A stretch of 64,000 nt of DNA, taken from positions 19,328 through 83,327 of the forward strand of contig CAYPSA010000003.1 in the NCBI GenBank assembly GCA_964413645.1, given 5' to 3'. Origin of the DNA: an uncultured Gammaproteobacteria bacterium. Lineage in GTDB: Bacteria; Patescibacteriota; Microgenomatia; UBA1406; HO2-37-13b. The translations under genes and the position numbers were made by a program. The first letter of the stretch is position 1. Each line of letters starts with the position of its first letter. Under the pieces are notes generated by a model. That model did not search any database. It was not told where the DNA came from and was given only the letters and a program-made list of their open reading frames with translations. Below, piece after piece: positions 11,882 through 44,595 of the stretch.

Positions 11882-12474
11882 TGTATAGTGTAAATTCCTC
11901 CGACTGTGCTACCAAGCGTATTTTCGCCATTGATCGCAGTAAGTGTTTTGGTATTGTCAAAATCAATGATGACTGATTTAGCGCCCGCTTTTGGCGTCAT
12001 GGTAAAGCTAAAAACCACACCTTCTTTTCGATCGGTGGGACTTTTTTCAGATAGGGAACCATTATATGTAATCTTTCCATTCTCATTTTTCATACCAATA
12101 ACTTGTGGGAATACCGTTCCATTAGTAAGTGCAGAGATGGTAACCCTTTTTGGATCATATGAAAGTACCACATCTGCTGCTGTTACTGGTAACTTTGAAA
12201 GCATAACTTCTACCGTTACCGCTTCTCCTGCTTTCACTGTTTGCTTTGCAGGTGAAAGAGCAATTGTGGTTGATGGTTTGATATTCTCGATAGCACTTGT
12301 TGTTGGAGTGGTTGTTGTAGGTTCAGAATCAGATTTCTTGGTTACGTTTGCTCCGACAATAATACTTATAATGAAGAGTCCGAAAATAATGGCAATAACG
12401 GCCATTTTTCGGTTTTGATCGAGCTTATTGAACTCGGAAAGGTCTTGTTTGATCGTGCTTGATAGATTTGTCAT
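11878..12474 (-). CDS. membrane-anchored cohesin-domain protein
   Basis: It has one N-terminal TM helix (MAVIAIIFGLFIISIIVGA) and a T/P linker. A single beta-sandwich-type module follows with cohesin-like signatures (VTVEVMLSKLPVTAADVVLSYDPKRVTISAL and GVVFSFTMTPKAGAKSVIIDF). It is the first gene of the operon with the two giants. Confidence 0.65.
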   Translation of the reverse strand: MTNLSSTIKQDLSEFNKLDQNRKMAVIAIIFGLFIISIIVGANVTKKSDSEPTTTTPTTSAIENIKPSTTIALSPAKQTVKAGEAVTVEVMLSKLPVTAADVVLSYDPKRVTISALTNGTVFPQVIGMKNENGKITYNGSLSEKSPTDRKEGVVFSFTMTPKAGAKSVIIDFDNTKTLTAINGENTLGSTVGGIYTIQ

Positions 12475-12556
12475 ATTTATTGATTGTAGATAAAGACTTC
12501 AATCGATGTCAAGTGGGAAAAATACTATATAAACGACGAGGAAGCTGGAATTATTT

Positions 12557-12644
12557 GTCATTTCGAAGAAGCGAAGCGACTAGGAAATATCAATCTATCC
12601 GAGATTTCTCCTCACTGTCAAATTGACGGCTCGTCGAAATGACA
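12557..12644. repeat. dispersed repeat cluster
   Basis: The cluster reads gtcatttcgaagaagcgaagcgactaggaaat...tccgagatttctcctcactgtcaaattgacggctcgtcgaaatgaca. The right half is near-identical to 1811-1856. Confidence 0.85.
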
Positions 12645-12737
12645 TACTATCTGAAATTAATCGTTTATCGGTAGGTAAGTCATCTTGGAGAGGGATTTTG
12701 TGCCTAATATGCGGTACCCCCGTATCGTATAAGTCAT

Positions 12738-34303: not shown

Positions 34304-34556
34304 GGCAGTGCCTCTGGACACAATCGAGATTATGTCCATAGGAACTGCCCGAAGTGGTGATGAGGATTGACGAGGTGTCAAACCAAACCATGATCCACTT
34401 CGGGCGGGGGTTCTCTGCAAAAGCAGCGGGCGTATGGCAAACGTGAGCCATAGCTTACTGCGAAAGCAGCGGGTTTACGAAGGTTACTCCTTTTGAACTA
34501 GATGTTCAGATAGATCCAGGTAGGATCTGTGCGTATCGGCGGCTTTGGGGCAGCGT

Positions 34557-36953
34557 TTAGAACGTGCAGGGCGGATAGTCCAGCCAGACTTCCTCGGAAA
34601 CTACCATATGGTCGCCTTGTCCATCCTTGCCCGTGTATCGGCAGCCGTTTGAATCACCAGTGGCAGAGCCATCGGTGAAGTTGACTGAATAGCAGATGAC
34701 AAAGTCACCGCTACTAAACGGACCGTCGATTCGGACAGGTTGCGGTTCAGGCGCAGGCGGCGGTGGAGCTTCCACAACGGGGTCGCCATTAGGCACGACC
34801 TCGTACTGGGTCTCCTGGGTTGGCGGAACTGTGGTGGCAACTACGATCAGTCGCCGCTGGGTGGCCTTCGGGATGATCCGAAGGTTCGGCTTGTTGGCCT
34901 TCGGGATGATCCGAAGGTTTGGTTTGTTTGTCCAAACGACCGGTGGGATGACGCGGCTTGCGTCGCAAACGGGCCGAAGCTCGTTGCAGTCCGGACAGAT
35001 TACTCCATCCAGAACTTTCCCGCCCAAAGGTGCCGATTTGAAGCTACAGTCGCCATAGACCACCCCACTGCTGAGTGTGATCCGGTAACCGACAACTTCG
35101 TCGCCTGCATTGAATGTCCTTGGTGGTAAACCTTTTCCCTTACCAGTTGCATCGCGAACACACATTGCTGTGGTCGAGCACCAGGGAAGGGTCGGGTTTC
35201 CTACACCGTTCCAACGTCGCAGGTTGGCCCGCAACGTTGTTTCATCGCAGTGATGGTTACGGATTTGAGTTTGCATTTCAGCCTCAATGAGACTTTCAAT
35301 CCACCCGTTACGATCGCAGTTGTCGATCTTATACAGAACGACTCGTGCTTCTCGAACGATAAACTCGAATTGTCCGTTTTCCAACACGTTGATTCTGCAG
35401 CTGGTGCTAAGACACTCGTTGCTACCAACTGGTGTTGTTTCCCAACCAACAAGGATGCCGACGTATCCTTGCGGAACGTCGATCTTCAAAGTCGCCTTGT
35501 CGCTTGGGATCCAGGTGCAGTCTTTCACCATGACGGGGGGCACTGACGGACATTCCGTCGGGCTTGCCGTTGGTGTCTTGGTCGGCGTGCGCGTCGGCGT
35601 GGGCGTCGGAGTTTCGGTCGGACACTCGGTCGACGTCGCGGTCGGCGTGGGCGTTTCGGTCGGACACTTCATGGGCCAAATACAAGGCCACCATGGCGTG
35701 TTGGTCGGGCTTGGCGACGGTCTCGGTGTTGGGCCAGGCGTTGGCGTGCACAAGCCTGGGAAGGCTTCGCACGGGTCGCCAATTGGCGGTTTCGGTGTAG
35801 TCGTCGGTGTTTCCGGACACTCGCCATTCGGTCCCGGGTAGGGACAGCTTGGCTTGTCCGTTGCCTTCGGCGTGTTCGTCGGTGGATTCACCGGCGTGTT
35901 CGTCGGCGTCCGGGTGGACGTCGAGGTCGTGGTGGCTGTGGCCGTGGCGGTCGCGGTCGCAGTCGCAGTCGGGCTGGCCGTGCTGGTGGCCGTGGCGGTC
36001 GCCGTGGGCGTGGCGGTGGCCGTGGGCGCAGTGGCGCTTGGACCGGGGGTCGGGCTCGACGTAATCGTCGGACTGGCCGTCACAGTCGGGCTGGGCGTCG
36101 CCGTGGCGGTTGCGGTAGCCGTAGCCGTGGCGGTTGCCGTGGCAGTCGCCGTCGAGGTCGCGGTCCGTGTGGCTGTCGCCGTGGCGGTGCCGTTGGGCGT
36201 TGCCGTGATGACAGTCGGGCCGGTCTGTGGGGTCGCGGTGACCTGAACCACTATCTCATACCGCTTGAAAAGCTGGTAATCGTCGTGGATCTCGTCCCCT
36301 GGGAAGTAGTAGAATCCGCCACCCAAGTTGTAACCCTTCTTACCGGGAAGGGGTGCGGGAAGCCGCGGCACGTCGTGCATTTGGGTGCAGTACAGGTTGA
36401 TAACGACTGTGCGTCCGTCTTCCGTCACCCGGAGGGTGTCGGGGTTAGCGGCATTCAGGCCGGTGGTCTGCGACCGAACGGTCACAGTTGGCTCGGTCCG
36501 CGCAAAGAGTTCGGGATGTGCCTTCAAATAGGCGGCTGCCAGCTCCGAGAACCGGGTCTCAGTGATGGGCTGGGTCGCCGCCAGGCGAAGCTCTGCGAGC
36601 TCTTCGTCCTGCGCTGCGTCCTTCGCGTTGGCCGTGGCCATCGCGTCCGCAAGCTTGTCGCTGCGGGTGTTGTCAACTGCGCGTTGGGTGGCCTGGGCGT
36701 CGGCGTTGTCGGTCAGCAGCTGGTCGATGCCATCGAGAGCGGCTAGTGCCTCCTCGCTGTTGGCGAGAGATGTCTCACTATTCTTGATAGCCACCTGACT
36801 GTTGTCGATCGCTCGCTGTTCAGCGGCAGTCGGGGTCGGCTCACTCTCGGCGCTTGCCGTGTCCGCATCGTCGCGGCCAAGAAAGTAGAAAATGGCAAGC
36901 CCGACTGAAACGGCGACAGTCGCTACGATAGCGACCAGCGTCCTGGTGGACAT
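34557..36953 (-). CDS. GC-rich membrane-anchored/secreted protein with a long (Thr-Ala)n/Thr-Pro linker and a Cys-rich C-terminal region
   Basis: The start is chosen at the second ATG because AAGGAG lies 5 nt upstream (atgAAGGAGaaccccATG). It has an N-terminal TM helix (LVAIVATVAVSVGLAIFYFL). About 130 aa of TATATATPT-type low complexity follow, then a C-terminal region with many Cys. Composition is very different from the neighbours. Confidence 0.75.
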   Translation of the reverse strand: MSTRTLVAIVATVAVSVGLAIFYFLGRDDADTASAESEPTPTAAEQRAIDNSQVAIKNSETSLANSEEALAALDGIDQLLTDNADAQATQRAVDNTRSDKLADAMATANAKDAAQDEELAELRLAATQPITETRFSELAAAYLKAHPELFARTEPTVTVRSQTTGLNAANPDTLRVTEDGRTVVINLYCTQMHDVPRLPAPLPGKKGYNLGGGFYYFPGDEIHDDYQLFKRYEIVVQVTATPQTGPTVITATPNGTATATATRTATSTATATATATATATATATATPSPTVTASPTITSSPTPGPSATAPTATATPTATATATSTASPTATATATATATATTTSTSTRTPTNTPVNPPTNTPKATDKPSCPYPGPNGECPETPTTTPKPPIGDPCEAFPGLCTPTPGPTPRPSPSPTNTPWWPCIWPMKCPTETPTPTATSTECPTETPTPTPTRTPTKTPTASPTECPSVPPVMVKDCTWIPSDKATLKIDVPQGYVGILVGWETTPVGSNECLSTSCRINVLENGQFEFIVREARVVLYKIDNCDRNGWIESLIEAEMQTQIRNHHCDETTLRANLRRWNGVGNPTLPWCSTTAMCVRDATGKGKGLPPRTFNAGDEVVGYRITLSSGVVYGDCSFKSAPLGGKVLDGVICPDCNELRPVCDASRVIPPVVWTNKPNLRIIPKANKPNLRIIPKATQRRLIVVATTVPPTQETQYEVVPNGDPVVEAPPPPAPEPQPVRIDGPFSSGDFVICYSVNFTDGSATGDSNGCRYTGKDGQGDHMVVSEEVWLDYPPCTF
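34863..34928. repeat. 33-nt tandem duplication inside the GC-rich gene
   Basis: ggccttcgggatgatccgaaggttcggcttgtt is followed directly by ggccttcgggatgatccgaaggtttggtttgtt, with 2 substitutions. It encodes KPNLRIIPKAN twice. Each unit contains the hairpin CTTCGG-gatgat-CCGAAG. Confidence 0.9.
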
Positions 36954-37571
36954 GGGGTTCTCCTTCATTATTGGGCAGTGCTATAAAAGCAACTGCAACG
37001 GGCGGGGGGGTCTTGTACAGTCCTGTTCGAGCGACTGATTGTTTCCGAAGAAAATAATACTGTCTGCAGTATGATATCGTCAGGTCGACGAGTACCGGTG
37101 CAAACGTTTAACTGAGTTTTAAACTCAGGTTGTTTTCCTGCAGTGCGAAAAATTGAACTGTCCGTCTTCCGATATTTTCCGACTCACTCCTTTCTTGTTT
37201 TTGAAAATGGGGAACCTCAGAACTTAGGATGTATATTTCATAAATCCTCAGATTCCCCATCTTCACTCTTAATATAGTTAATTTAGTAACCTTTTCCACA
37301 AAAGGAGATCCTTAGGCTTGCGCTGTTAGGATACAGATTTTTGTGGAAGTAAACCCAATTGTAAAAGTGCTTATTTGGAAACTATGAGTGGAAAATAAAT
37401 CTCCACCATCTTTCCCAAAAAATCCAACATTTTACCTGACTTGGGCCGGATGCAAAACCCGGCTTTTCGGGTAGAAAATGTAACCTATAGTTTATCAAAA
37501 AAAGGTGTAATTGTCAAGTTGGGACGCATTTACTTGTACTCATTATTATTTTGTATGCTAAAATACTTTTT

Positions 37572-38771
37572 ATGTTTACTCCGTCACAAAAAATGCTTTC
37601 AAACTACGCGCATGTGTTAACCGATTTTGCTTTGGGAAGTGGGGAGGGAATTAAGAAAGGTGAAGTTATTTTTGTACAATTCGATTCTCCAGCTCTTCCT
37701 TTGGCTCAAGAGGTATACCGCGCAATTCTTCAAAAGGGTGCGCATCCGATGGTAAAAATGAACGAAGATAGTTTTGGTAAGATTTTTTATGATGAAGCAA
37801 GTGATGAGCAGCTTGAATTTTTTCCTAAGAAATACCAAAAATCGCTCATTGAAACCATGGATCACCGCATGTATTTAATGGCCGATCGTGACCCATTGCA
37901 CCTAAAAGGGGTTGATCCGGTCAAAATGATGAAGGCTAATAAGAGTCGAAAAACGCTTAAAAAGTGGCTTGATCAAAAAGAAGATGCTGGAAAACTAACG
38001 TGGACATTGTGTTTATACGGTACGCCAGGAATGGCAAAACAAGCAGGCTTGAGTTTAGAAAAGTATTGGGAGCAGATTGCTGCAGCATGCTTTCTAGAAG
38101 AAAAGAAGCCTATAGCTAAATGGCAAGAGGTGTTCAAAAAAGTTGAACAGACCATGGCTAAATTGAATGCATTACCAATCGATAAGCTCCATGTTGTGGC
38201 TAATAAGACTGATTTATGGATTAGCATGGGAGAAAAGCGAAAATTCATTGGGGGGAGTGGTCGAAATATTCCGAGCTTTGAAATATTTACGTCGCCCGAT
38301 TGGCGAGGTACGAATGGCCATGTATACTTCGACTTCCCATTGTATCGATACGGCAACATTATTGAGGATATTAGCCTTGAATTCAAAAATGGACATGTAG
38401 TAAACGCATCGGCTCGTAAAAATGAAAAGTTGATTAAGGAACTTATTAAGCAGAAAAATGCCGACAAAATAGGTGAATATTCGCTGACCGACCGACGATT
38501 TAGCAAAATCACTAAATTCATGGCTAATACGCTATTTGATGAAAATTATGGAGGGGAATTTGGAAATACTCATTTAGCCTTGGGTTCTTCGTATCATGAT
38601 ACCTATACCGGAAATGCTAAAAAGCTAAAAGATGCCGATTGGACAAAATTAGGATACAACTCGAGTGCCGAACATACCGATATTATCGCCAAACAAGACA
38701 GAGTTGTAACTGCAGTGCTTAAAGACGGATCAGAAAAAGTGATCTATAAAGGTGGGGAATTTAAGGTTTAA
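37572..38771 (+). CDS. aminopeptidase, M29 (AmpS/PepS/aminopeptidase T) family
   Basis: The N-terminus is LSNYAHVLTDFALGSGEGIKKGEVIFVQFDSPALPLAQEVYRAILQKGAHP. C-terminal motifs are GNTHLALGSSY and SAEHTDII. The start is taken at the ATG at 37572, because the ORF track start is a TTG. Confidence 0.75.
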   Translation: MFTPSQKMLSNYAHVLTDFALGSGEGIKKGEVIFVQFDSPALPLAQEVYRAILQKGAHPMVKMNEDSFGKIFYDEASDEQLEFFPKKYQKSLIETMDHRMYLMADRDPLHLKGVDPVKMMKANKSRKTLKKWLDQKEDAGKLTWTLCLYGTPGMAKQAGLSLEKYWEQIAAACFLEEKKPIAKWQEVFKKVEQTMAKLNALPIDKLHVVANKTDLWISMGEKRKFIGGSGRNIPSFEIFTSPDWRGTNGHVYFDFPLYRYGNIIEDISLEFKNGHVVNASARKNEKLIKELIKQKNADKIGEYSLTDRRFSKITKFMANTLFDENYGGEFGNTHLALGSSYHDTYTGNAKKLKDADWTKLGYNSSAEHTDIIAKQDRVVTAVLKDGSEKVIYKGGEFKV

Positions 38772-40924
38772 GACTTTCTTCCATACTTCTCCTTACTCGT
38801 GGTAATAATCTTTTCTCGATTATCATTTTTTAGGTGGGGTAAGGGAAGCGTGAACGCGGGGAATGGCTGGGAAGTCATATTATCGACCGATAACTTCATA
38901 ACAATTTCAAACTTTCCTAAGGAAACCAAATCGGCTTCCGTGTATAGTTCCCCGAATTCCTTAGACAAGAAATAGGCGTCGCGTGCGCCTAACACAAACG
39001 ACATGAGTGTGCCTACATTTCCAAAAATGGCGCGTTGAATTTCAAGTTCCAGCTGTTCGGTATATTGATTAGCCAGGGTAAGTGATAATCGGTATTTTCG
39101 TGCCTCAGATAGGATCTTAATGAATGAATTCGTGGCAAAATTTTGAAACTCATCAACGTACAAGAAAAAATCTCGTCGATTTTCTTCTTTACTAAACGAT
39201 CGTCCCATCGCCGCAAGCTGGATTTGAGTAATAATCATGGCTCCAAGTAGAGATGCATTGTCTTCTCCGAGCTTTCCTTGCGACAGATTTAAGATGAGGA
39301 TTTTTCCTTCATCCATAATTTCAGCTAAATTAATTGATGACTTTGGAGATCCGATAATATTACGAATCATGGTAGAGGTTACGAATTGACCAACTTTATT
39401 TTGAATAGGGGAAACGGCTTCGGCACGCAACTTATCGCCCATTTTGGCAAATTCGGCATTCCAGAAGTTTTTGAGCACCGGATCGTTAATTTGAGGCACA
39501 ACTTTTGCCCGATATTCGTCGTCGGAAAGGATTCGAAGCGCGTCAACCAGCGTTGCATTTGGAATTTCCAACAGTGTCAAAATAACGTTTCGCAAAATAT
39601 ACTCGAGTCGTGGTCCCCAGCTTTTTCCGTATAACTTGGAAAAAATAGAGACAATTCCTGAAGCAACTAAGTGTTTTTGTTCGGGGTGGTGCACTTCCAA
39701 AACGTTCAGTTTAAATGGTCTTTCACTGTCAAATGGTTCTAAATATACCACGTCGTTTATACGACGCTTAGGAATATAATCCAAGATAATTTCAGAAAGA
39801 TCTCCGTGCGGGTCGATAATGCCAATTCCGCGGTCGCGACGAATGTCGTCGATTGCCATATTAGCGATAAGCGTAGATTTTCCTGCTCCTGTTTTTCCGA
39901 TAATATACATGTGCTTGCGGCGATCAGCGGTTTTTATACCAAAAATCTGATCCTTATTCTTAAATTCTGTTTTTGCAAAGAAATTAATGTCTTTCTTCTG
40001 TTCTTCGTCCATTTCTTCAGAAATTGGCAAGTCGTCAGGCGGTTCCCCCGAAAGTGCCTTACCCCAAGCAATATTTTTAACACCTTTGAGTAGAATTCCC
40101 GGTGGGTGCCATAAACTTGCAAGTTCTTGGGCATTTAGAATTTGATCTTGGCGTTCGAGCATGTACGTGGTTCGTTTAACCATACGGTCAAGTAACTGTT
40201 TTTTGAGCATTTTGCGTTTTTTAAAGCCAAATTGATTTCCGTCGCCTAGTGAAAACGTTCCAAATGTGCCTGCTAAATTGCTTAAGTAGCTCATGGCGCC
40301 CTCGTCGGTTGTATCGGCAGTAAGGAGTCGGATTAAGGCTTTGCCGCCTGAAAAAGCAGTTTTTCGAGAAATAATCATTTTTTGTGGGTTCATACCGTAT
40401 TTATCGGCACCTTTGTCGTAGCTCATTTTTTGAGCAAATGAAGCTGCGGCCTTTCCCCAGGCAAACGAAGCAGGCGTAATAAGGATCTGAATAGCAGCTT
40501 TTTGTTGAGGAGTTGAGCGTGCTAGAAAGCCTAAAATAGAAGAGAGAGGGTCGACATCTTTAAAATCGTAATACGTTTTAATGGGAAGGTAAAAAGACGA
40601 TGAAAGGGCAACTTCACCAAGAGCCGTATATGGGGAACTGGTTAGGTATGAAAGGGGGTCTTTGGTTTTGACGATTTTTGAGTTGGTAAACGATGAAGTA
40701 ATAAGGCTTTTTACGAACGTTTCACTTTTTTCACTTGTGGTGGCATACATATAAATGGTTTGACCGAGTAAATAGATTTCAAACGCATAATATTTTGGTT
40801 GAATATATAAGCGTTTAAGAGGGGGTAGGTACGAAGGAAGTAGAGAGGCGAAAATCTGACTTGCCGCTTCAATAGGCGTTTCGTCGTCTTTTGGATTGCG
40901 AACCTGTAAATGAACAAGGGACAT
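38768..40924 (-). CDS. P-loop ATPase of the VirD4/TraG/TraD (FtsK-HerA superfamily) type
   Basis: Walker A is MYIIGKTGAGKST and Walker B is FFLYVDEFQNF. A ~330-aa N-terminal domain of unknown function precedes the ATPase, and no TM helix is evident. Confidence 0.7.
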   Translation of the reverse strand: MSLVHLQVRNPKDDETPIEAASQIFASLLPSYLPPLKRLYIQPKYYAFEIYLLGQTIYMYATTSEKSETFVKSLITSSFTNSKIVKTKDPLSYLTSSPYTALGEVALSSSFYLPIKTYYDFKDVDPLSSILGFLARSTPQQKAAIQILITPASFAWGKAAASFAQKMSYDKGADKYGMNPQKMIISRKTAFSGGKALIRLLTADTTDEGAMSYLSNLAGTFGTFSLGDGNQFGFKKRKMLKKQLLDRMVKRTTYMLERQDQILNAQELASLWHPPGILLKGVKNIAWGKALSGEPPDDLPISEEMDEEQKKDINFFAKTEFKNKDQIFGIKTADRRKHMYIIGKTGAGKSTLIANMAIDDIRRDRGIGIIDPHGDLSEIILDYIPKRRINDVVYLEPFDSERPFKLNVLEVHHPEQKHLVASGIVSIFSKLYGKSWGPRLEYILRNVILTLLEIPNATLVDALRILSDDEYRAKVVPQINDPVLKNFWNAEFAKMGDKLRAEAVSPIQNKVGQFVTSTMIRNIIGSPKSSINLAEIMDEGKILILNLSQGKLGEDNASLLGAMIITQIQLAAMGRSFSKEENRRDFFLYVDEFQNFATNSFIKILSEARKYRLSLTLANQYTEQLELEIQRAIFGNVGTLMSFVLGARDAYFLSKEFGELYTEADLVSLGKFEIVMKLSVDNMTSQPFPAFTLPLPHLKNDNREKIITTSKEKYGRKS

Positions 40925-40966
40925 GTATTGATTATATATCAGACTTACAAGCGAGTGGAGAGCTGG

Positions 40967-42118
40967 TTACGTAATGGGTGTAGCCGTAGGTGTAGGCGTA
41001 GCCGTCGGTTGCATAAGTGAAATAACCGAATCGAATGAGGCTTTGGGAGTACGATCGGCTTTTAGAATGCCCCAATGGCCATCTTTACCAAGCCACAGCT
41101 CATCGGTTAGCGTGTTAACAAAGACCATGCGCGGATTGTATTTACCTTTTTGCAAAGCCGCAAGTGCTTTGCCAAGGTATACTCCCTGATCGGCGGGCGT
41201 TACATTAGGATCGATTGTCGATACACCTATTTCAGGAATTGCAAGTTCATGGTTCGGGAATTGCTCGTGGAGGGCATCAATTTCGATAGGGAGGCGTGCG
41301 ATTTTAGCTTCATCTTTTCCGGCATAGTAGTCAAACCCCAATATATCAACATGGGGTGCGAGGGCAGTAAGTACTCGCATGTCCATTCCTATTCTATCAG
41401 TTCGTGAAGCGGTCATATTTATTGATGTTTTTGCTGCAGGATCGGCTGATTTTACTCCTTCGTTTGCTGCTTGAATGATTTGTTGCAGTTGGCTGAGTTG
41501 CTGATCGGATATATCGCTACGCCACGTGTAATTTCGAACTTCACGAGTATCGGGTTCATTAAATAATTGCCATACGGCAATTTTGCCTTTGTAGCGTGCC
41601 GCAAGAGATTCAAAGTATTCACGTGTGAATTGAACGTATTGTTCGTGGGGAACGTCTTGTAAAACTTCAGGAGTATTTCCAATGAGATTAATATCAAGTC
41701 CGCGTGAACGGGCATAGTCTATAACCTCATCGTATTTGGCTAAATTTTCCTCATTTAGTGCGTATCCTGTATCTGTTTTTGAAGCAGTTTCTGAGCCCCA
41801 TATATTGAAACGAATCCATTTTTGACCTTTTGAAGCCAGCAGGTCAATGTTTTGTTTAAACATATCAACCGTCATGTTGTTTCCTTCTTCTGGATTTACG
41901 AATACATGTGTGGCAAAACCAAATTCAGTAGGGTGTTCTCGTACAATTTCAGGCGTAATGGACGTAGGAGAAGTGTCGGGAAAGTGCTGGGCGAGTCTAC
42001 TCATGACTCCTCCAAGAATTGAGGGGCCTTTTATTGCAGCTAAAGCTCCTGCTGCGGCAAGACCGCTTGCGGTTAAAAATTGTCTGCGTGTAGGGACGAA
42101 TCGTTCGTTATCACTCAT
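40967..42118 (-). CDS. secreted TIM-barrel glycoside hydrolase-like protein (GH5-like) with a twin-arginine signal
   Basis: It is trimmed to MSDNERFVPTRRQFLTASGLAAAGALAA, which has the Tat motif RRxFL. The candidate acid/base is WQLFNEPD and the candidate nucleophile is AIPEIGVS. A C-terminal PTATPTPTATP tail is present. Confidence 0.6.
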   Translation of the reverse strand: MSDNERFVPTRRQFLTASGLAAAGALAAIKGPSILGGVMSRLAQHFPDTSPTSITPEIVREHPTEFGFATHVFVNPEEGNNMTVDMFKQNIDLLASKGQKWIRFNIWGSETASKTDTGYALNEENLAKYDEVIDYARSRGLDINLIGNTPEVLQDVPHEQYVQFTREYFESLAARYKGKIAVWQLFNEPDTREVRNYTWRSDISDQQLSQLQQIIQAANEGVKSADPAAKTSINMTASRTDRIGMDMRVLTALAPHVDILGFDYYAGKDEAKIARLPIEIDALHEQFPNHELAIPEIGVSTIDPNVTPADQGVYLGKALAALQKGKYNPRMVFVNTLTDELWLGKDGHWGILKADRTPKASFDSVISLMQPTATPTPTATPIT

Positions 42119-42360
42119 GGAAATATTGTAACAGATATGACGGGCGATTGAATCTAAGCCCATAGCATAGTATAATGATCGCAGTTTTTTTATGGTTTGA
42201 AAAAACGAACGCCGCGCATTTGCTGTTCGGATAGTTTGTTCTTTTAAGCACCTTACCAATGAGGGTAGATTATTATTTGTTTCATTTTTGGAAACAGACA
42301 GGCTTTTTTGGGCACAAAAACAACACGGAACCCATTTCCGTTTAACCGTCAACATCCGCT

Positions 42361-42393
42361 GTAGACCAAAGGTCTACTGAGTCCTAGGAGGAC
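42361..42393 (+). promoter_or_regulatory. conserved leader: hairpin GTAGAC-caaag-GTCTAC followed by the SD box GTCCTAGGAGGAC
   Basis: An almost identical unit lies at 43081-43115. SD-box-only copies lie at 42554-42567, 42880-42893 and 43784-43796. Each sits 2-5 nt upstream of a start codon. Confidence 0.7.
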
Positions 42394-42397
42394 GACT

Positions 42398-42517
42398 ATG
42401 ATGTTCATGTTCATATTGCTGGTAGTCCTGTTGATCTTGTGTCTTGCTGCTGCAAAGCTGCTTCAATGGCTTTTTTTAGATGGCAATCCACCAGATGATC
42501 CAGGCAACTACTTCTGA
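42398..42517 (+). CDS. small hydrophobic peptide (39 aa, 1 TM)
   Basis: It is not in the ORF track because it is under 60 aa. The sequence is MMFMFILLVVLLILCLAAAKLLQWLFLDGNPPDDPGNYF. It is preceded by AGGAGGAC 4 nt upstream. Confidence 0.55.
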   Translation: MMFMFILLVVLLILCLAAAKLLQWLFLDGNPPDDPGNYF

Positions 42518-42571
42518 TCCACCATCCGCCGGACGGCTTTGAAAGTGTCATATGTCCCAAGGAGGACAACC

Positions 42572-42847
42572 ATGAAACGGACAAAGAGCGAATGGATCTC
42601 ACTGGTTGTGTATGCACTTCCAGTACTGATTGGCGCTTTCGGATACTGGCTGACTAGGGAGGGATCGCTTTTGCTTCTAGCACTCGGTTTTGGCTTTATC
42701 CTCGTTATCGAAGTCTTCGGTAACACGGGCATTGCCGACACGGATATGAACGACGATGATCCCATTGTGTTTTCAGGACCTCCGACCCGTCAAGGTTCTA
42801 CGCCTGATCGGTTTCGTGGCCGCCACGACAACATTTCCTTAAGATAG
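42572..42847 (+). CDS. small membrane protein (91 aa, 2 TM)
   Basis: ORF 42539..42847 is trimmed to the ATG at 42572, which follows gtcccAAGGAGGACaacc. The sequence begins MKRTKSEWISLVVYALPVLIGAFGYW... Confidence 0.6.
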   Translation: MKRTKSEWISLVVYALPVLIGAFGYWLTREGSLLLLALGFGFILVIEVFGNTGIADTDMNDDDPIVFSGPPTRQGSTPDRFRGRHDNISLR

Positions 42848-42895
42848 GAAATCCGCCGCAGACATTCGTGTCTACTAGAGTCCCAAGGAGGACAA

Positions 42896-43066
42896 ATGAG
42901 AATCTGTCTGGACTTGCAACTCGCCTTTCCTATTGCACTCATACTAATGTCTGTTGGTATGGTGCTCGGAACGACGCTCTCGTTCACCCTGCAATTAGCA
43001 ACGCACTTCGTACTTGCCATGCTCAAAGATTCAAATGAGGAGGTGAAGACCGCCAACGAGCCGTGA
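42896..43066 (+). CDS. small membrane protein (56 aa)
   Basis: It is not in the ORF track. The sequence is MRICLDLQLAFPIALILMSVGMVLGTTLSFTLQLATHFVLAMLKDSNEEVKTANEP. It is preceded by gtcccAAGGAGGACaa. Confidence 0.55.
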   Translation: MRICLDLQLAFPIALILMSVGMVLGTTLSFTLQLATHFVLAMLKDSNEEVKTANEP

Positions 43067-43080
43067 CATGTTCCATCCGC

Positions 43081-43115
43081 GTAGACTTTCAAGTCTACTT
43101 GAGTCCTAGGAGGAC
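43081..43115 (+). promoter_or_regulatory. second copy of the hairpin plus SD-box leader
   Basis: The unit reads GTAGAC-tttcaa-GTCTAC-ttga-GTCCTAGGAGGAC, 5 nt upstream of the ATG at 43121. Confidence 0.7.
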
Positions 43116-43120
43116 GCACA

Positions 43121-43282
43121 ATGACCTTCAGATTGAAGGGGCTAGGTTTGACAGTTAGTCTCTGCGGAAGCGTCGTCTTGTGCGACTGGCTTTTTCGTAA
43201 CGGACACCCTTATTGGGGGACTGTTGCCATACTTCTGCCAGTCGTCAACTTGGCCTTCCTGTTCGACTTTCTGGAAAACTAG
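43121..43282 (+). CDS. small membrane protein (53 aa, 2 TM)
   Basis: It is not in the ORF track. The sequence is MTFRLKGLGLTVSLCGSVVLCDWLFRNGHPYWGTVAILLPVVNLAFLFDFLEN. Confidence 0.55.
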   Translation: MTFRLKGLGLTVSLCGSVVLCDWLFRNGHPYWGTVAILLPVVNLAFLFDFLEN

Positions 43283-43371
43283 AAACCCGCGCCACCGTCA
43301 GATCATCCGATCTGGGCACCAATTCAGCATTCTCCGAACTCCTTTGGAGTTCTAACAGAAAGAAGAGAGCC

Positions 43372-43731
43372 GTGCTTCGAAGACTAGTCGTAAACTTGAC
43401 GCTTATTCTGAGTGTCGTCGCTATGTGGTTGGTCTTTGATCAGCCCAACGTGGCGTTCGCACAGAACCCGACCCCGGCCGTTTCGTCAAGCCGTACCTTC
43501 ATCGGTCCGGCTCCGTCCAGCTTGGACACCAAAGAACCTGTCGGCAACTCGTCGATGCCTGCGACTGAGCAGCGTGCAAAAGTGACCCCATGGTCATTCG
43601 TCTGGCGACTCGCTACCACCTACATCTTACTTGGTGGGGCGATCGTTCTCATTACACTCCTTCGCAGGAGCTATACAAAGCCGAAGTCGCGCAAGCGAGG
43701 AGAGCCGAAGTTCGATCAGCGACACTTCTGA
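43372..43731 (+). CDS. small secreted/membrane protein (119 aa; N-terminal signal-like helix and C-terminal TM)
   Basis: ORF 43213..43731 is trimmed to the GTG at 43372 after a purine-rich stretch. The N-terminus is VLRRLVVNLTLILSVVAMWLVFDQPNVAFAQ and the C-terminal TM segment is YILLGGAIVLITLL followed by a basic tail. The start is uncertain. Confidence 0.45.
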   Translation: MLRRLVVNLTLILSVVAMWLVFDQPNVAFAQNPTPAVSSSRTFIGPAPSSLDTKEPVGNSSMPATEQRAKVTPWSFVWRLATTYILLGGAIVLITLLRRSYTKPKSRKRGEPKFDQRHF

Positions 43732-43799
43732 TCGCACGACAACTCTTTTCGCCACTGACCCGGGTCAAACGACTTGATCACATGTCCAAGGAGGACACC

Positions 43800-43970
43800 G
43801 TGAAACAGTGCCTCGTATACCTGGTCTTAAGCGTTTTGTTGGGAAGCCTCCTGTTGTTTGGACAGACCTGTCCAACAATGATTGAGAGACTCATCGGGGG
43901 CTTCTTCCTGGGTATGTCCGGCGTATACACTGCGTTCTTCGCAGTCCTGCGAAAGCTGCAGAGTCCTTAA
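43800..43970 (+). CDS. small membrane protein (56 aa, 2 TM)
   Basis: ORF 43590..43970 is trimmed to the GTG at 43800, which follows gtccAAGGAGGACacc. The sequence is VKQCLVYLVLSVLLGSLLLFGQTCPTMIERLIGGFFLGMSGVYTAFFAVLRKLQSP. Confidence 0.55.
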   Translation: MKQCLVYLVLSVLLGSLLLFGQTCPTMIERLIGGFFLGMSGVYTAFFAVLRKLQSP

Positions 43971-44118
43971 GGGATTCGGCGACTAGGCTTGGGGGGGGCG
44001 GGTGACCGTTTCGTAGTTGCACAGCTTTGTGCATACGGTCATTCGCCCCTTCGCGTTCTTTTTTCCAAAAACCAATAACAAACAGTTTCTACCCTCATAA
44101 TTTCTTCTGAGAATATTT

Positions 44119-44167
44119 GAGATCTCTCACTGCGTTCGAGATGACATGGGCAGTGGTTCAGAATGAC
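44119..44167. repeat. dispersed repeat copy
   Basis: The copy reads gagatctctcactgcgttcgagatgacatgggcagtggttcagaatgac. Confidence 0.7.
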
Positions 44168-44272
44168 CCTTCGACACTCTGTTCACTCAGGGCTAAGAGT
44201 AAGAATGTGCTTTTCCAACAATCTAAATATTCATTTATGGGACTTCTAGTCCGTTGACGTAGAAATATTCTG

Positions 44273-44473
44273 TTGTATTATGTAATCGAAATGTCGCCAA
44301 TTGCAAAAAATGTTCTTTCAGATCTCTTTATTAATATCGCTGCTGGATGGTGTGGAGTTATATTTATTAGTCCTTTCTTCGGTTCTGATTATCTTTTGTT
44401 GCTATCTAGAATAGTTTTTGCTATGGTATTCCTATGTGGTGGATACTCTTTAAGGAAGGGGGCGATTCGATGA
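44273..44473 (+). CDS. small membrane protein (66 aa)
   Basis: Two hydrophobic helices are present. Its stop overlaps the next small ORF start (ATGA). Confidence 0.4.
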   Translation: MYYVIEMSPIAKNVLSDLFINIAAGWCGVIFISPFFGSDYLLLLSRIVFAMVFLCGGYSLRKGAIR

Positions 44474-44595
44474 ACTCCTTTGATTTTAATCAAGCAGCTA
44501 ATAATGCTCAATTACAAATGGTTCTTGCGGTGATTGCTTTTACACTCGTTTATTGGGTATTTGACCGAAGAGGCGATAAAAAGACGAATAAGTGA
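44470..44595 (+). CDS. small membrane peptide (41 aa)
   Basis: It is not in the ORF track. The sequence is MNSFDFNQAANNAQLQMVLAVIAFTLVYWVFDRRGDKKTNK. It is coupled to 44273..44473. Confidence 0.3.
   Translation: MNSFDFNQAANNAQLQMVLAVIAFTLVYWVFDRRGDKKTNK

Follow-up and report, generated by a model that had tools for sequence, protein, structure and literature searches.

Integron cassettes also occur as clusters of attC sites without an integrase (CALIN), for which the integrase IntI is not required, and an attC site is 57-141 bp long, with R'' (RYYYAAC) and R' (GTTRRRY) cores set in an imperfect dyad that carries extrahelical bases. Mobile insertion cassettes of the MIC231 type, described in 1999 and 2004, are reportedly made of passenger genes flanked by inverted repeats derived from insertion sequences (IS), with no transposase. 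At the RNA level, stem-loops between cistrons shape operon messenger RNA (mRNA), as in the REP/BIME stabilisers of Escherichia coli, the RNase III sites of phage T7 early mRNA and, in Firmicutes, the cut that RNase Y makes 5' of a hairpin. The present analysis compares these systems with island B, a locus rich in guanine plus cytosine (GC) at positions 42148-44098 of a 64-kb window (the whole stretch of 64,000 nucleotides (nt) of contig CAYPSA010000003.1 that was analysed), in which six small open reading frames (ORFs), P1 to P6, are each preceded by a structured junction module. The host belongs to the candidate phyla radiation (CPR; Patescibacteria), whose members are uncultured episymbionts with strain-variable envelope genes that are thought to govern host attachment; to our knowledge, the origin of this envelope variation is little known.

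Island B is a single accessory transcription unit with a promoter-like site, a leader, six small ORFs and a terminator (Table 1), and it is a strain-variable part of a Candidatus Roizmanbacteria chromosome, foreign to that chromosome in two independent ways: in composition and in translation signals. On balance, and with moderate confidence, it is explained as a polycistronic, Shine-Dalgarno (SD)-dependent cassette array whose repeated modules serve both as initiation and stability elements and as recombination points. The unit would be transcribed as one polycistronic mRNA, GC-rich and structured, in a host whose own genes appear to use no SD, and each module would give its cistron an SD-dependent internal initiation site of its own. 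The upstream hairpins (H1) would most plausibly act as intercistronic processing or stability elements, a mini-hairpin of about -4 kcal/mol around the SD would tune translation rather than switch it, and the modules, being 50-nt repeats and therefore candidate crossover points, would support cassette exchange with a GC-richer, SD-using gene pool. The products would be envelope or membrane proteins under rapid turnover. The locus offers a concrete architecture for envelope variation, a fixed expression platform with swappable cassettes that bring their own translation signals; it also points to an unsampled donor pool, and its SD-bearing foreign genes in an otherwise SD-less genome make a testable case of how acquired genes are expressed in a non-SD host.

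A strain-variable unit of foreign composition

Three haplotypes from independent assemblies (W, R and E; Table 1) have the promoter, leader and terminator tail in common and mostly different cassettes, P5 being the only cassette present in every haplotype. In block comparisons, W and R agree in the leader (95.6%), in the P5 cassette (93%) and in the terminator with the right flank (100%), with nothing in common between these blocks, and R and E agree only in the leader and the a/a' cassette (89.5%). A further relative (L006) is without the whole unit, promoter included, and keeps only TACCCTCAT, the outer part of the right inverted-repeat arm.

The relative L010, which carries a homologous island, is a Candidatus Roizmanbacteria metagenome-assembled genome recovered with a pattern scan of GTDB species genomes. 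Island B DNA is 100% identical on two Logan contigs, homologous islands occupy this locus in assemblies from ENA, Logan and GTDB, and the junctions with the host flanks recur in assemblies from different samples, NCBI included. The samples that carry the locus include SRR8893623/4, SRR26337526, SRR14932676/96, SRR5306406/7 and ERR14790942. An assembly chimera, which the sequence-only reading had raised against itself, is contradicted by these identical copies and same-locus homologues. The same reading had named minus-strand genes as a further doubt; the antisense ORFs were found to have neither hydrophobic segments nor family matches, and the wrong GC-by-codon-position pattern, the GC1 > GC2 < GC3 pattern supporting the plus-strand frames, and the homologous ORFs remain open across haplotypes. 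Gene callers do disagree on several ORFs (172-amino-acid (aa) and 126-aa overcalls, P1 and P6 uncalled), but that the island is an artefact of assembly, non-coding DNA or a set of minus-strand genes is regarded as extremely improbable given the recurrent junctions and the character of the antisense frames.

GC content climbs from ~40% to 50-58% between ~42340 and 44070. The six island ORFs have a GC fraction at third codon positions (GC3) of 0.59 versus 0.31-0.40 in host genes, and the intergenic GC of the island is 50-56%; codon choice differs likewise between island and host (CTG 0.25 vs 0.07, GTC 0.39 vs 0.12, TTC 0.66 vs 0.31). Because host ribosomal-protein genes (GC3 0.27-0.33) and host membrane-protein genes (mostly 0.26-0.37) are low in GC3, the island value does not reflect expression bias or hydrophobicity. 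The translation signals point the same way: a strong SD precedes 5/6 island ORFs (AGGAGG; the sixth has a purine-rich tract) but 1/39 host genes, the host count accepting a strong SD 5-mer ahead of any candidate start that is in frame and within the first 60 codons. Strong SD 5-mers have a density of 12.6 per kb in the island versus 2.4 per kb outside, and strong SDs before genes are confined to the window's two GC-rich islands. Additionally, a near-consensus -10 hexamer (TATAAT-like) lies 3-14 nt before the start in 10 of the 39 host genes, for example upstream of 45197(-), 49374(-), 30501(-) and 40924(-), which suggests leaderless mRNAs. The block had been called compositionally foreign in the sequence-only reading, and it is so both at silent sites and in its translation signals.

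The promoter scan found no plus-strand promoter-like site in the island interior, which leaves all six ORFs behind the candidate promoter at the left edge. The leader is 88-96% identical among haplotypes with differing cargo and is AT-rich as the host is; it folds modestly better than its shuffles (z -2.35) and has no Rfam match. At the other end, the nested hairpin and T-run with which the block had been said to finish form a strong predicted fold (-45.5 kcal/mol, z -3.64), and the terminator tail CCTTCGCGTTCTTTTTTCC is kept in L004, where the stem is different. Two smaller features of the leader were also seen. In all three haplotypes, a start-stop mini-ORF (ATG GTT TGA, 42192-42200; TAA in L004) is kept close to where the leader is predicted to begin. 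A leader hairpin CGGAA..TTCCG (42325-42341), with its stem kept and its loop differing between haplotypes, is terminator-like on the minus strand (hairpin followed by GTTGTTTTTG) and might shield the divergent gene upstream of the island from antisense transcripts.

Table 1. Features of island B in the window and cassette content of its haplotypes
Feature	Position or source	Strand	Description
Candidate sigma-70 promoter	42148..42176	+	TTGAAT-17-TATAAT; promoter scan 10/12 matches; kept in E and R haplotypes
5' leader	42183..42397	+	conserved, AT-rich, ~215 nt; start-stop mini-ORF; motif AAGCACCTTACCAATGAGGGTAGA in common with island A
IR-L	42259..42295	.	left inverted-repeat arm around cargo, inside leader; ~38-nt imperfect; 11-nt perfect core ATGAGGGTAGA
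J1	42350..42397	+	ATCCGC 42354-42359; H1 42361-42377 (GTAGACC/GGTCTAC); SD mini-hairpin 42381-42393
P1	42398..42517	+	39 aa, one hydrophobic helix; SD box 4 nt upstream
J2	42520..42571	+	box CCACCATCCGCC (ATCCGC 42524-42529); bulged hairpin 42531-42549; SD box 42554-42567
P2	42572..42847	+	91 aa, two hydrophobic helices, acidic Pro-rich tail; orphan
J3	42848..42895	+	box 42851-42857; hairpin 42858-42875, one mismatch; SD box 42880-42893
P3	42896..43066	+	56 aa, hydrophobic
J4	43067..43120	+	box 43075-43080; hairpin 43081-43098 (GTAGACT/AGTCTAC); SD mini-hairpin 43103-43115
P4	43121..43282	+	53 aa, two hydrophobic segments; identical protein on independent ENA contig L001
J5 (double)	43283..43371	+	CCACCG and hairpin 43299-43314 (CAGATC/GATCTG), then second hairpin unit
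J5, second unit	within 43283..43371	+	hairpin 43336-43352 (GAACTCC/GGAGTTC), CTAAC, purine-rich SD 43357-43369
P5	43372..43731	+	119 aa, GTG start; signal-peptide-like N-terminus (..AFA-QNPTP), Ser/Thr/Pro linker, C-terminal transmembrane helix, basic tail
J6	43732..43799	+	CGCCAC box; palindrome 43756-43767 (TGACCCGGGTCA); SD box 43784-43796
P6	43800..43970	+	56 aa, GTG start, two hydrophobic helices; missing from R and E haplotypes
Intrinsic terminator	43992..44064	+	nested hairpin 43992-44052 and T-run 44056-44064
IR-R	44062..44098	.	right inverted-repeat arm; overlaps terminator T-run
Haplotype W	window		cassettes P1-P6
Haplotype R	L010, L007-9		cassettes a, a', g, P5
Haplotype E	L004/5		cassettes a, a', b, c, d, e, P5-like
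Mosaic	L001		P4 and P5 N-terminus as W; P5 C-terminus and terminator as E

Junction modules between the small genes

The junction module before each ORF measures ~45-50 nt for P1-P4 and 68-89 nt for P5 and P6. A full module consists, in order, of a C-rich box CCA(C)CATCCGC(C), with its best copy before P2, the hairpin H1 beginning 0-3 nt after the box, the trinucleotide CUA, and an AGGAGGA SD, 4-7 nt from the start codon and with its 3' half paired in a mini-hairpin of 4-5 bp. H1 has 5-8 bp (4 bp before P6), and its pairing is kept while its sequence differs across related genomes. Two endings were distinguished: class i, in which the SD box folds as GUCC(U)-loop-(A)GGAC, and class ii, before P5, with a purine-rich SD and no mini-hairpin. 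The boxes before P5 and P6 are variants and not ATCCGC; the J2 hairpin belongs to a GGACG family with two further copies in L004, and the GAACTCC module of J5 also precedes the P5 homologues in L004 and L010.

The sequence-only reading had reported a conserved SD box before five of the ORFs, and the boxes stand where it placed them (GTCCTAGGAGGAC at 42381 and 43103, GTCCCAAGGAGGAC at 42554 and 42880, GTCCAAGGAGGAC at 43784), each finishing 2-5 nt 5' of an ATG or GTG. With one mismatch allowed, GTCCTAGGAGGAC has three matches in 64 kb (42381, 43103, 43784) versus 0.04 expected and GTCCNWRGGAGGAC has two, both exact (42554, 42880), versus 0.03 expected, and no copy of the five boxes lies elsewhere in the 64 kb. 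Of its proposal that a GTAGAC..GTCTAC hairpin precedes two boxes, with a degenerate version before a third, the three structures themselves remain (in J1, J4 and J3), the GTAGAC..GTCTAC hairpins folding as had been predicted, but not the count, as hairpins precede all six ORFs; those before P2, P5 and P6 had gone unnoticed. Also overlooked were the promoter with its conserved leader, the ATCCGC box 5' of the hairpins, the inverted repeats at the flanks, the swapping of cassettes between strains and the SD-less host genes.

Across the three haplotypes and island A, the second GC-rich island of the window, 14 modules hold 11 distinct H1 stems, all of them fully complementary save for one mismatch. 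In an alignment of 10 modules, 98.3% of H1 cells are paired versus 66.6% in shuffles (0/500), a percentage inflated by the choice of H1 segments for their complementarity, and 22-47% are paired in slid-partner controls; five of the six pairs have changed on both sides, and the covariation score is 0.82 versus 0.20. This pattern indicates that the H1 hairpins are under structural constraint.

The SD mini-hairpin itself, formed by the GTCC/GGAC pairing that had been proposed earlier, is kept in related loci with different loops and with three stems, namely GUCC(U)/(A)GGAC, UUACCC/GGGUAA (island A of L004) and GCC/GGC (island A of L010). A translational switch, that is, an RNA thermometer or a protein- or RNA-gated operator keeping the peptides off until a signal arrives, would draw on this recurrence with compensating stems and on the pairing of the 3' half of the SD in each class-i module; the conserved upstream C-rich box (CCACC, CCGCC), read from the sequence, could also pair imperfectly with GGAGG. 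However, the mini-hairpins are weak (-3.5 to -4.6 kcal/mol at 37 C), P5-type modules are without one, and no candidate regulator was found. In ViennaRNA partition functions computed at 5, 15, 25, 37 and 45 C, the predicted unpaired probability of GGAGG is 0.28-0.60, changing by at most 0.02 for P1-P3 and rising for P4 and P6 only over 5-25 C. The thermometer behaviour suggested earlier is not borne out by these predictions, which show no melting transition between 5 and 45 C; because accessibility is nearly flat over this range, the mini-hairpin looks like a tuning element and not a thermometer. A switch of any of these kinds is considered unlikely.

Proposed cassette exchange, orphan peptides and flanking repeats

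The six co-oriented ORFs (39, 91, 56, 53, 119 and 56 aa) had been described as small membrane peptides, and each does hold one or two Kyte-Doolittle hydrophobic segments. Their array had also been seen as a duplicated cassette of leader plus small hydrophobic peptide; a leader/ORF unit is repeated, but only the ~50-nt junction is duplicated and the peptides are mostly unrelated to each other. The architecture of P5 (signal peptide, linker, transmembrane helix and basic tail) is kept even where its sequence has diverged, with synonymous and non-synonymous changes among its homologues at ~1:1. The six peptides have no significant match in Pfam, PHROGs, PADLOC or NCBIfam, P2 and P5 have no PDB sequence match, and no relevant Rfam family was found at the gathering threshold over the whole window or at an E-value threshold over 36800-44300, in keeping with the earlier remark that nothing nameable matches. 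A word-indexed protein search with P5 gave three matches, all from this lineage, and a phmmer search with P2 against 1.84 billion representatives gave P2 itself and two repetitive non-membrane proteins that were judged spurious on reading. In these searches the island peptides have no homologues outside this lineage.

Small hydrophobic peptides in a foreign and variable locus, with a VirD4/TrwB-like ATPase gene 1.4 kb away, would also fit what is left of a prophage, plasmid or toxin locus, in which case the products would be holins, superinfection- or entry-exclusion factors, type I toxins or bacteriocin-immunity proteins. The peptides do not, however, match any family in the searches above, and blastn with island B found nothing in 50,697 phage or 72,556 plasmid records. 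Scans of IMG/VR with four junction patterns returned nothing, or seven chance palindromes in unrelated contexts; in JGI metagenomes the leader core pattern had no match and the class-i junction pattern hit three contigs only, which have an unrelated element of their own; the IMG/VR and JGI scans alike require exact matches and would miss diverged relatives. Nor was a strong antisense promoter found; the neighbourhood is free of phage and plasmid genes, and the 64 kb are ordinary chromosome, encoding L10, L7/L12, DnaB, deformylase, cohesin/dockerin proteins and the ATPase, which the two GC-rich islands flank. A remnant of this type is therefore held to be improbable. The three JGI contigs (L021 6234-6279, L022 4243-4287, L023 929-973) have in common an element ..GTGCGCCGAATCCGCG..CTAAAGTCCAGGGAGGACCCAT beside a promoter-like A-tract and a tRNA, which is unrelated to island B and may be an unannotated structured RNA. 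A literature search found nothing on the island B element or on SD usage in Patescibacteria.

The positions at which the haplotypes part bear directly on the role of the modules. Homology stops at or beside the ATCCGC box in several comparisons, and at the first junction of E versus R the hairpin alone is replaced (GTAGACA..TGTCTAC versus GATAAGCT..AGCTTATC). The cargo is furthermore bracketed by the arms IR-L and IR-R, whose extended alignment has a score of 33 (null 12.4 +/- 2.6, maximum 24), one that 0/1828 null comparisons reach; the E haplotype (L004) keeps this pattern. In the window and the fetched loci, only the two arms of island B and a related pair around island A were found.

These observations are shared by the main rival, in which the modules and arms function at the DNA level, either as recombination sites that fold as single-stranded DNA for a putative recombinase, as in integrons, or, for the ~38-nt inverted repeats, as ends of a non-autonomous transposon or invertible segment. 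Promoterless, co-oriented cassettes of strain-variable content behind one resident promoter would suit it, as would the homology breaks at the ATCCGC box with one hairpin swapped alone, hairpins kept in structure and variable in sequence as in attC, significant inverted repeats around the cargo of both islands, and the presence or absence of the whole unit between relatives. Pfam scans (40 ORFs of at least 100 aa) found no integrase, transposase, invertase or other recombinase in the 64-kb window, however, and the modules, at ~45 nt and without RYYYAAC/GTTRRRY cores, are not attC. No target-site duplication was seen, as the flanks ..CTTACCA / IR-L and IR-R / AATTTCT are not direct repeats, and the outer 9 nt of IR-R persist at the empty site. 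Although it is situated beyond IR-L, the promoter comes and goes with the island, and because L006 is also without this promoter region, there is no clean empty site for an element bounded by the repeats. All assemblies of the three haplotypes have one orientation, some breakpoints fall within coding sequence, and homologous recombination between the 50-nt repeats accounts for the same data. The data do not require a DNA-level function, which is considered possible but doubtful.

The polycistronic, SD-dependent array has its own difficulties. It gives the flanking inverted repeats no role, folds of single junctions are no better than shuffles (z +0.7 to -1.5), and the fixed position of H1 after the box is a stronger and independent argument than the pairing of segments that were picked for complementarity. 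Two homology breaks lie off-module, one inside the C-terminal coding region of P5 and one at the left edge of the P5 cassette of W, where the box is degenerate, so exchange is not strictly module-bound; the comparison as a whole rests on three haplotypes and one mosaic. The polycistron, its processing and the translation of the ORFs are read from sequence, and, with the 3' end of the host 16S ribosomal RNA outside the window, SD use by host ribosomes is a presumption.

Island A (window 34400-37000, minus strand; up to 75% GC) has the same design of promoter, leader and inverted repeats. Its cargo is an orphan protein of 803 aa, secreted or on the surface, that has Cys-rich domains and linkers of TA/TP repeats; it is preceded by the SD GAAGGAG and followed, after the stop, by a box and hairpin module (CCGCC..CAGATCC/GGATCTA, ~34510-34545); its equivalent in L004 holds four small membrane ORFs and a large protein. 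A promoter-like site, TTGACA-17-TAAACT, was read by eye. The long conserved leader (36969-37520) holds the related motif AAGCACTTTTACAATTGGGTTTAC, with its complement at the far end of the island (GTAAACCC in the window, AAACCCAATTG in L004 and L024). Within it, 37185-37490 (minus strand) is a ~300-nt conserved structured RNA candidate (-99.8 kcal/mol, z -6.2; no Rfam match) that ends in a long perfect hairpin and UUUUC (37202-37265), and this region could be a small RNA, or else a leader of the attenuator or riboswitch-like type. The motif AAGCACYTTWMCAATKRGGKTWRM is common to the leaders of both islands (window 42246-42270 and 37338-37361; L004 14259-14282). A match in a Woesebacteria genome (L013 6455-6478), directly 3' of a promoter-like site and bordering a low-GC block of small phage-like ORFs, was set aside as a relative, being within chance expectation for the scan; no further inverted copy was found in L013.

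Taking the two islands together, a more speculative proposal is that they are landing pads of a previously undescribed CPR cassette-exchange system, integron-like without IntI or attC. Promoterless cassettes for membrane or surface proteins, each bringing its SD, would enter from a separate, GC-richer pool behind a host-type promoter and a structured leader, related inverted repeats would bracket the pad, and the box and hairpin modules would be the exchange sites. The proposal is offered tentatively; if it is true, the episymbiont gains a rapidly re-assortable envelope proteome.

Variability in the neighbourhood reaches beyond the islands. A GH5 gene between the TrwB-like gene and island B (window 40967-42118, minus strand) is absent from the E and R haplotypes, and L004 has an extra GIY-YIG ORF (12398-12679; 27% GC) and a LAGLIDADG intein in DnaB (1-1750), both absent from the window. 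Host repeat units of the type GTCATCCTGAGCG.AGCGAAGGATCTC occur on both island sides in some haplotypes (window 44119-44195; L010 4800-4850). Two small membrane ORFs of host composition lie directly 3' of the island (window 44254-44595): the first, of 60 aa, at 44291-44473, and the second, ending at 44595, which the gene callers give as 41 aa and which spans 53 aa if its longest ORF is taken. The pair has its own promoter-like site (44254-44281), placed for a leaderless start, and is kept in relatives including the island-less L006. A look-up of the 60-aa protein in search of further haplotypes found only an already-known contig.

Comparison with known systems

Island B differs in several respects from regulatory and mobile elements that it resembles in part. 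ROSE and fourU thermometers likewise have a short hairpin close to the start codon that pairs part of the SD; the island stem, however, has only 4-5 bp and leaves half of the SD in the loop, it is not predicted to melt over 5-45 C, and the element is repeated before five consecutive cistrons. The families of small proteins that might have been expected (holins, type I toxins, bacteriocin immunity, defence) gave no significant match in Pfam, PHROGs, PADLOC, NCBIfam or PDB. An invertible segment of the Hin/Gin type finds no support, with no recombinase in the window and one orientation in all assemblies of the three haplotypes.

The resemblance to intercistronic stem-loops is closer, as the hairpins separate the cistrons of a single operon, keep a fixed distance to a conserved flank, have no terminator T-run and are followed closely by a strong SD. 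REP elements are conserved in sequence and spread genome-wide, often together with a RAYT transposase, whereas the island hairpins vary (11 stems) and the ATCCGC and hairpin modules are confined to the GC-rich islands of the window, L004 and L010; REP/BIME elements were therefore rejected. Mobile insertion cassettes offer a parallel at the DNA level, with passenger genes between ~38-nt imperfect inverted repeats and no transposase inside. Island B differs from them in that it has no target-site duplication or clean empty site, the end of IR-R persisting in the latter, in that the window and fetched loci showed no cognate IS and one copy per genome, and in that a promoter outside IR-L travels with the unit.

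Overall, the locus is most like an integron array in the way it works, yet it fails the tests that define one, having no IntI in the 64-kb window and no attC. The reading of the modules as attC was rejected on length and core sequences: they are ~45 nt long, flanked by ATCCGC(C) and CTA, with no AAC...GTT cores on either strand. Some breakpoints lie outside the repeats, and the repeats include the SD of the next gene and therefore act as 5' rather than 3' cassette elements. The likeness to integrons and CALIN lies in promoterless, co-oriented and unrelated small ORFs behind one resident promoter, in a structured repeat between cassettes with conserved pairing and variable sequence, and in cassettes that are mostly orphans and whose content differs between close strains. 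Should recombination turn out to take place at the modules, island B would represent an integron-like system that operates without an integron integrase.

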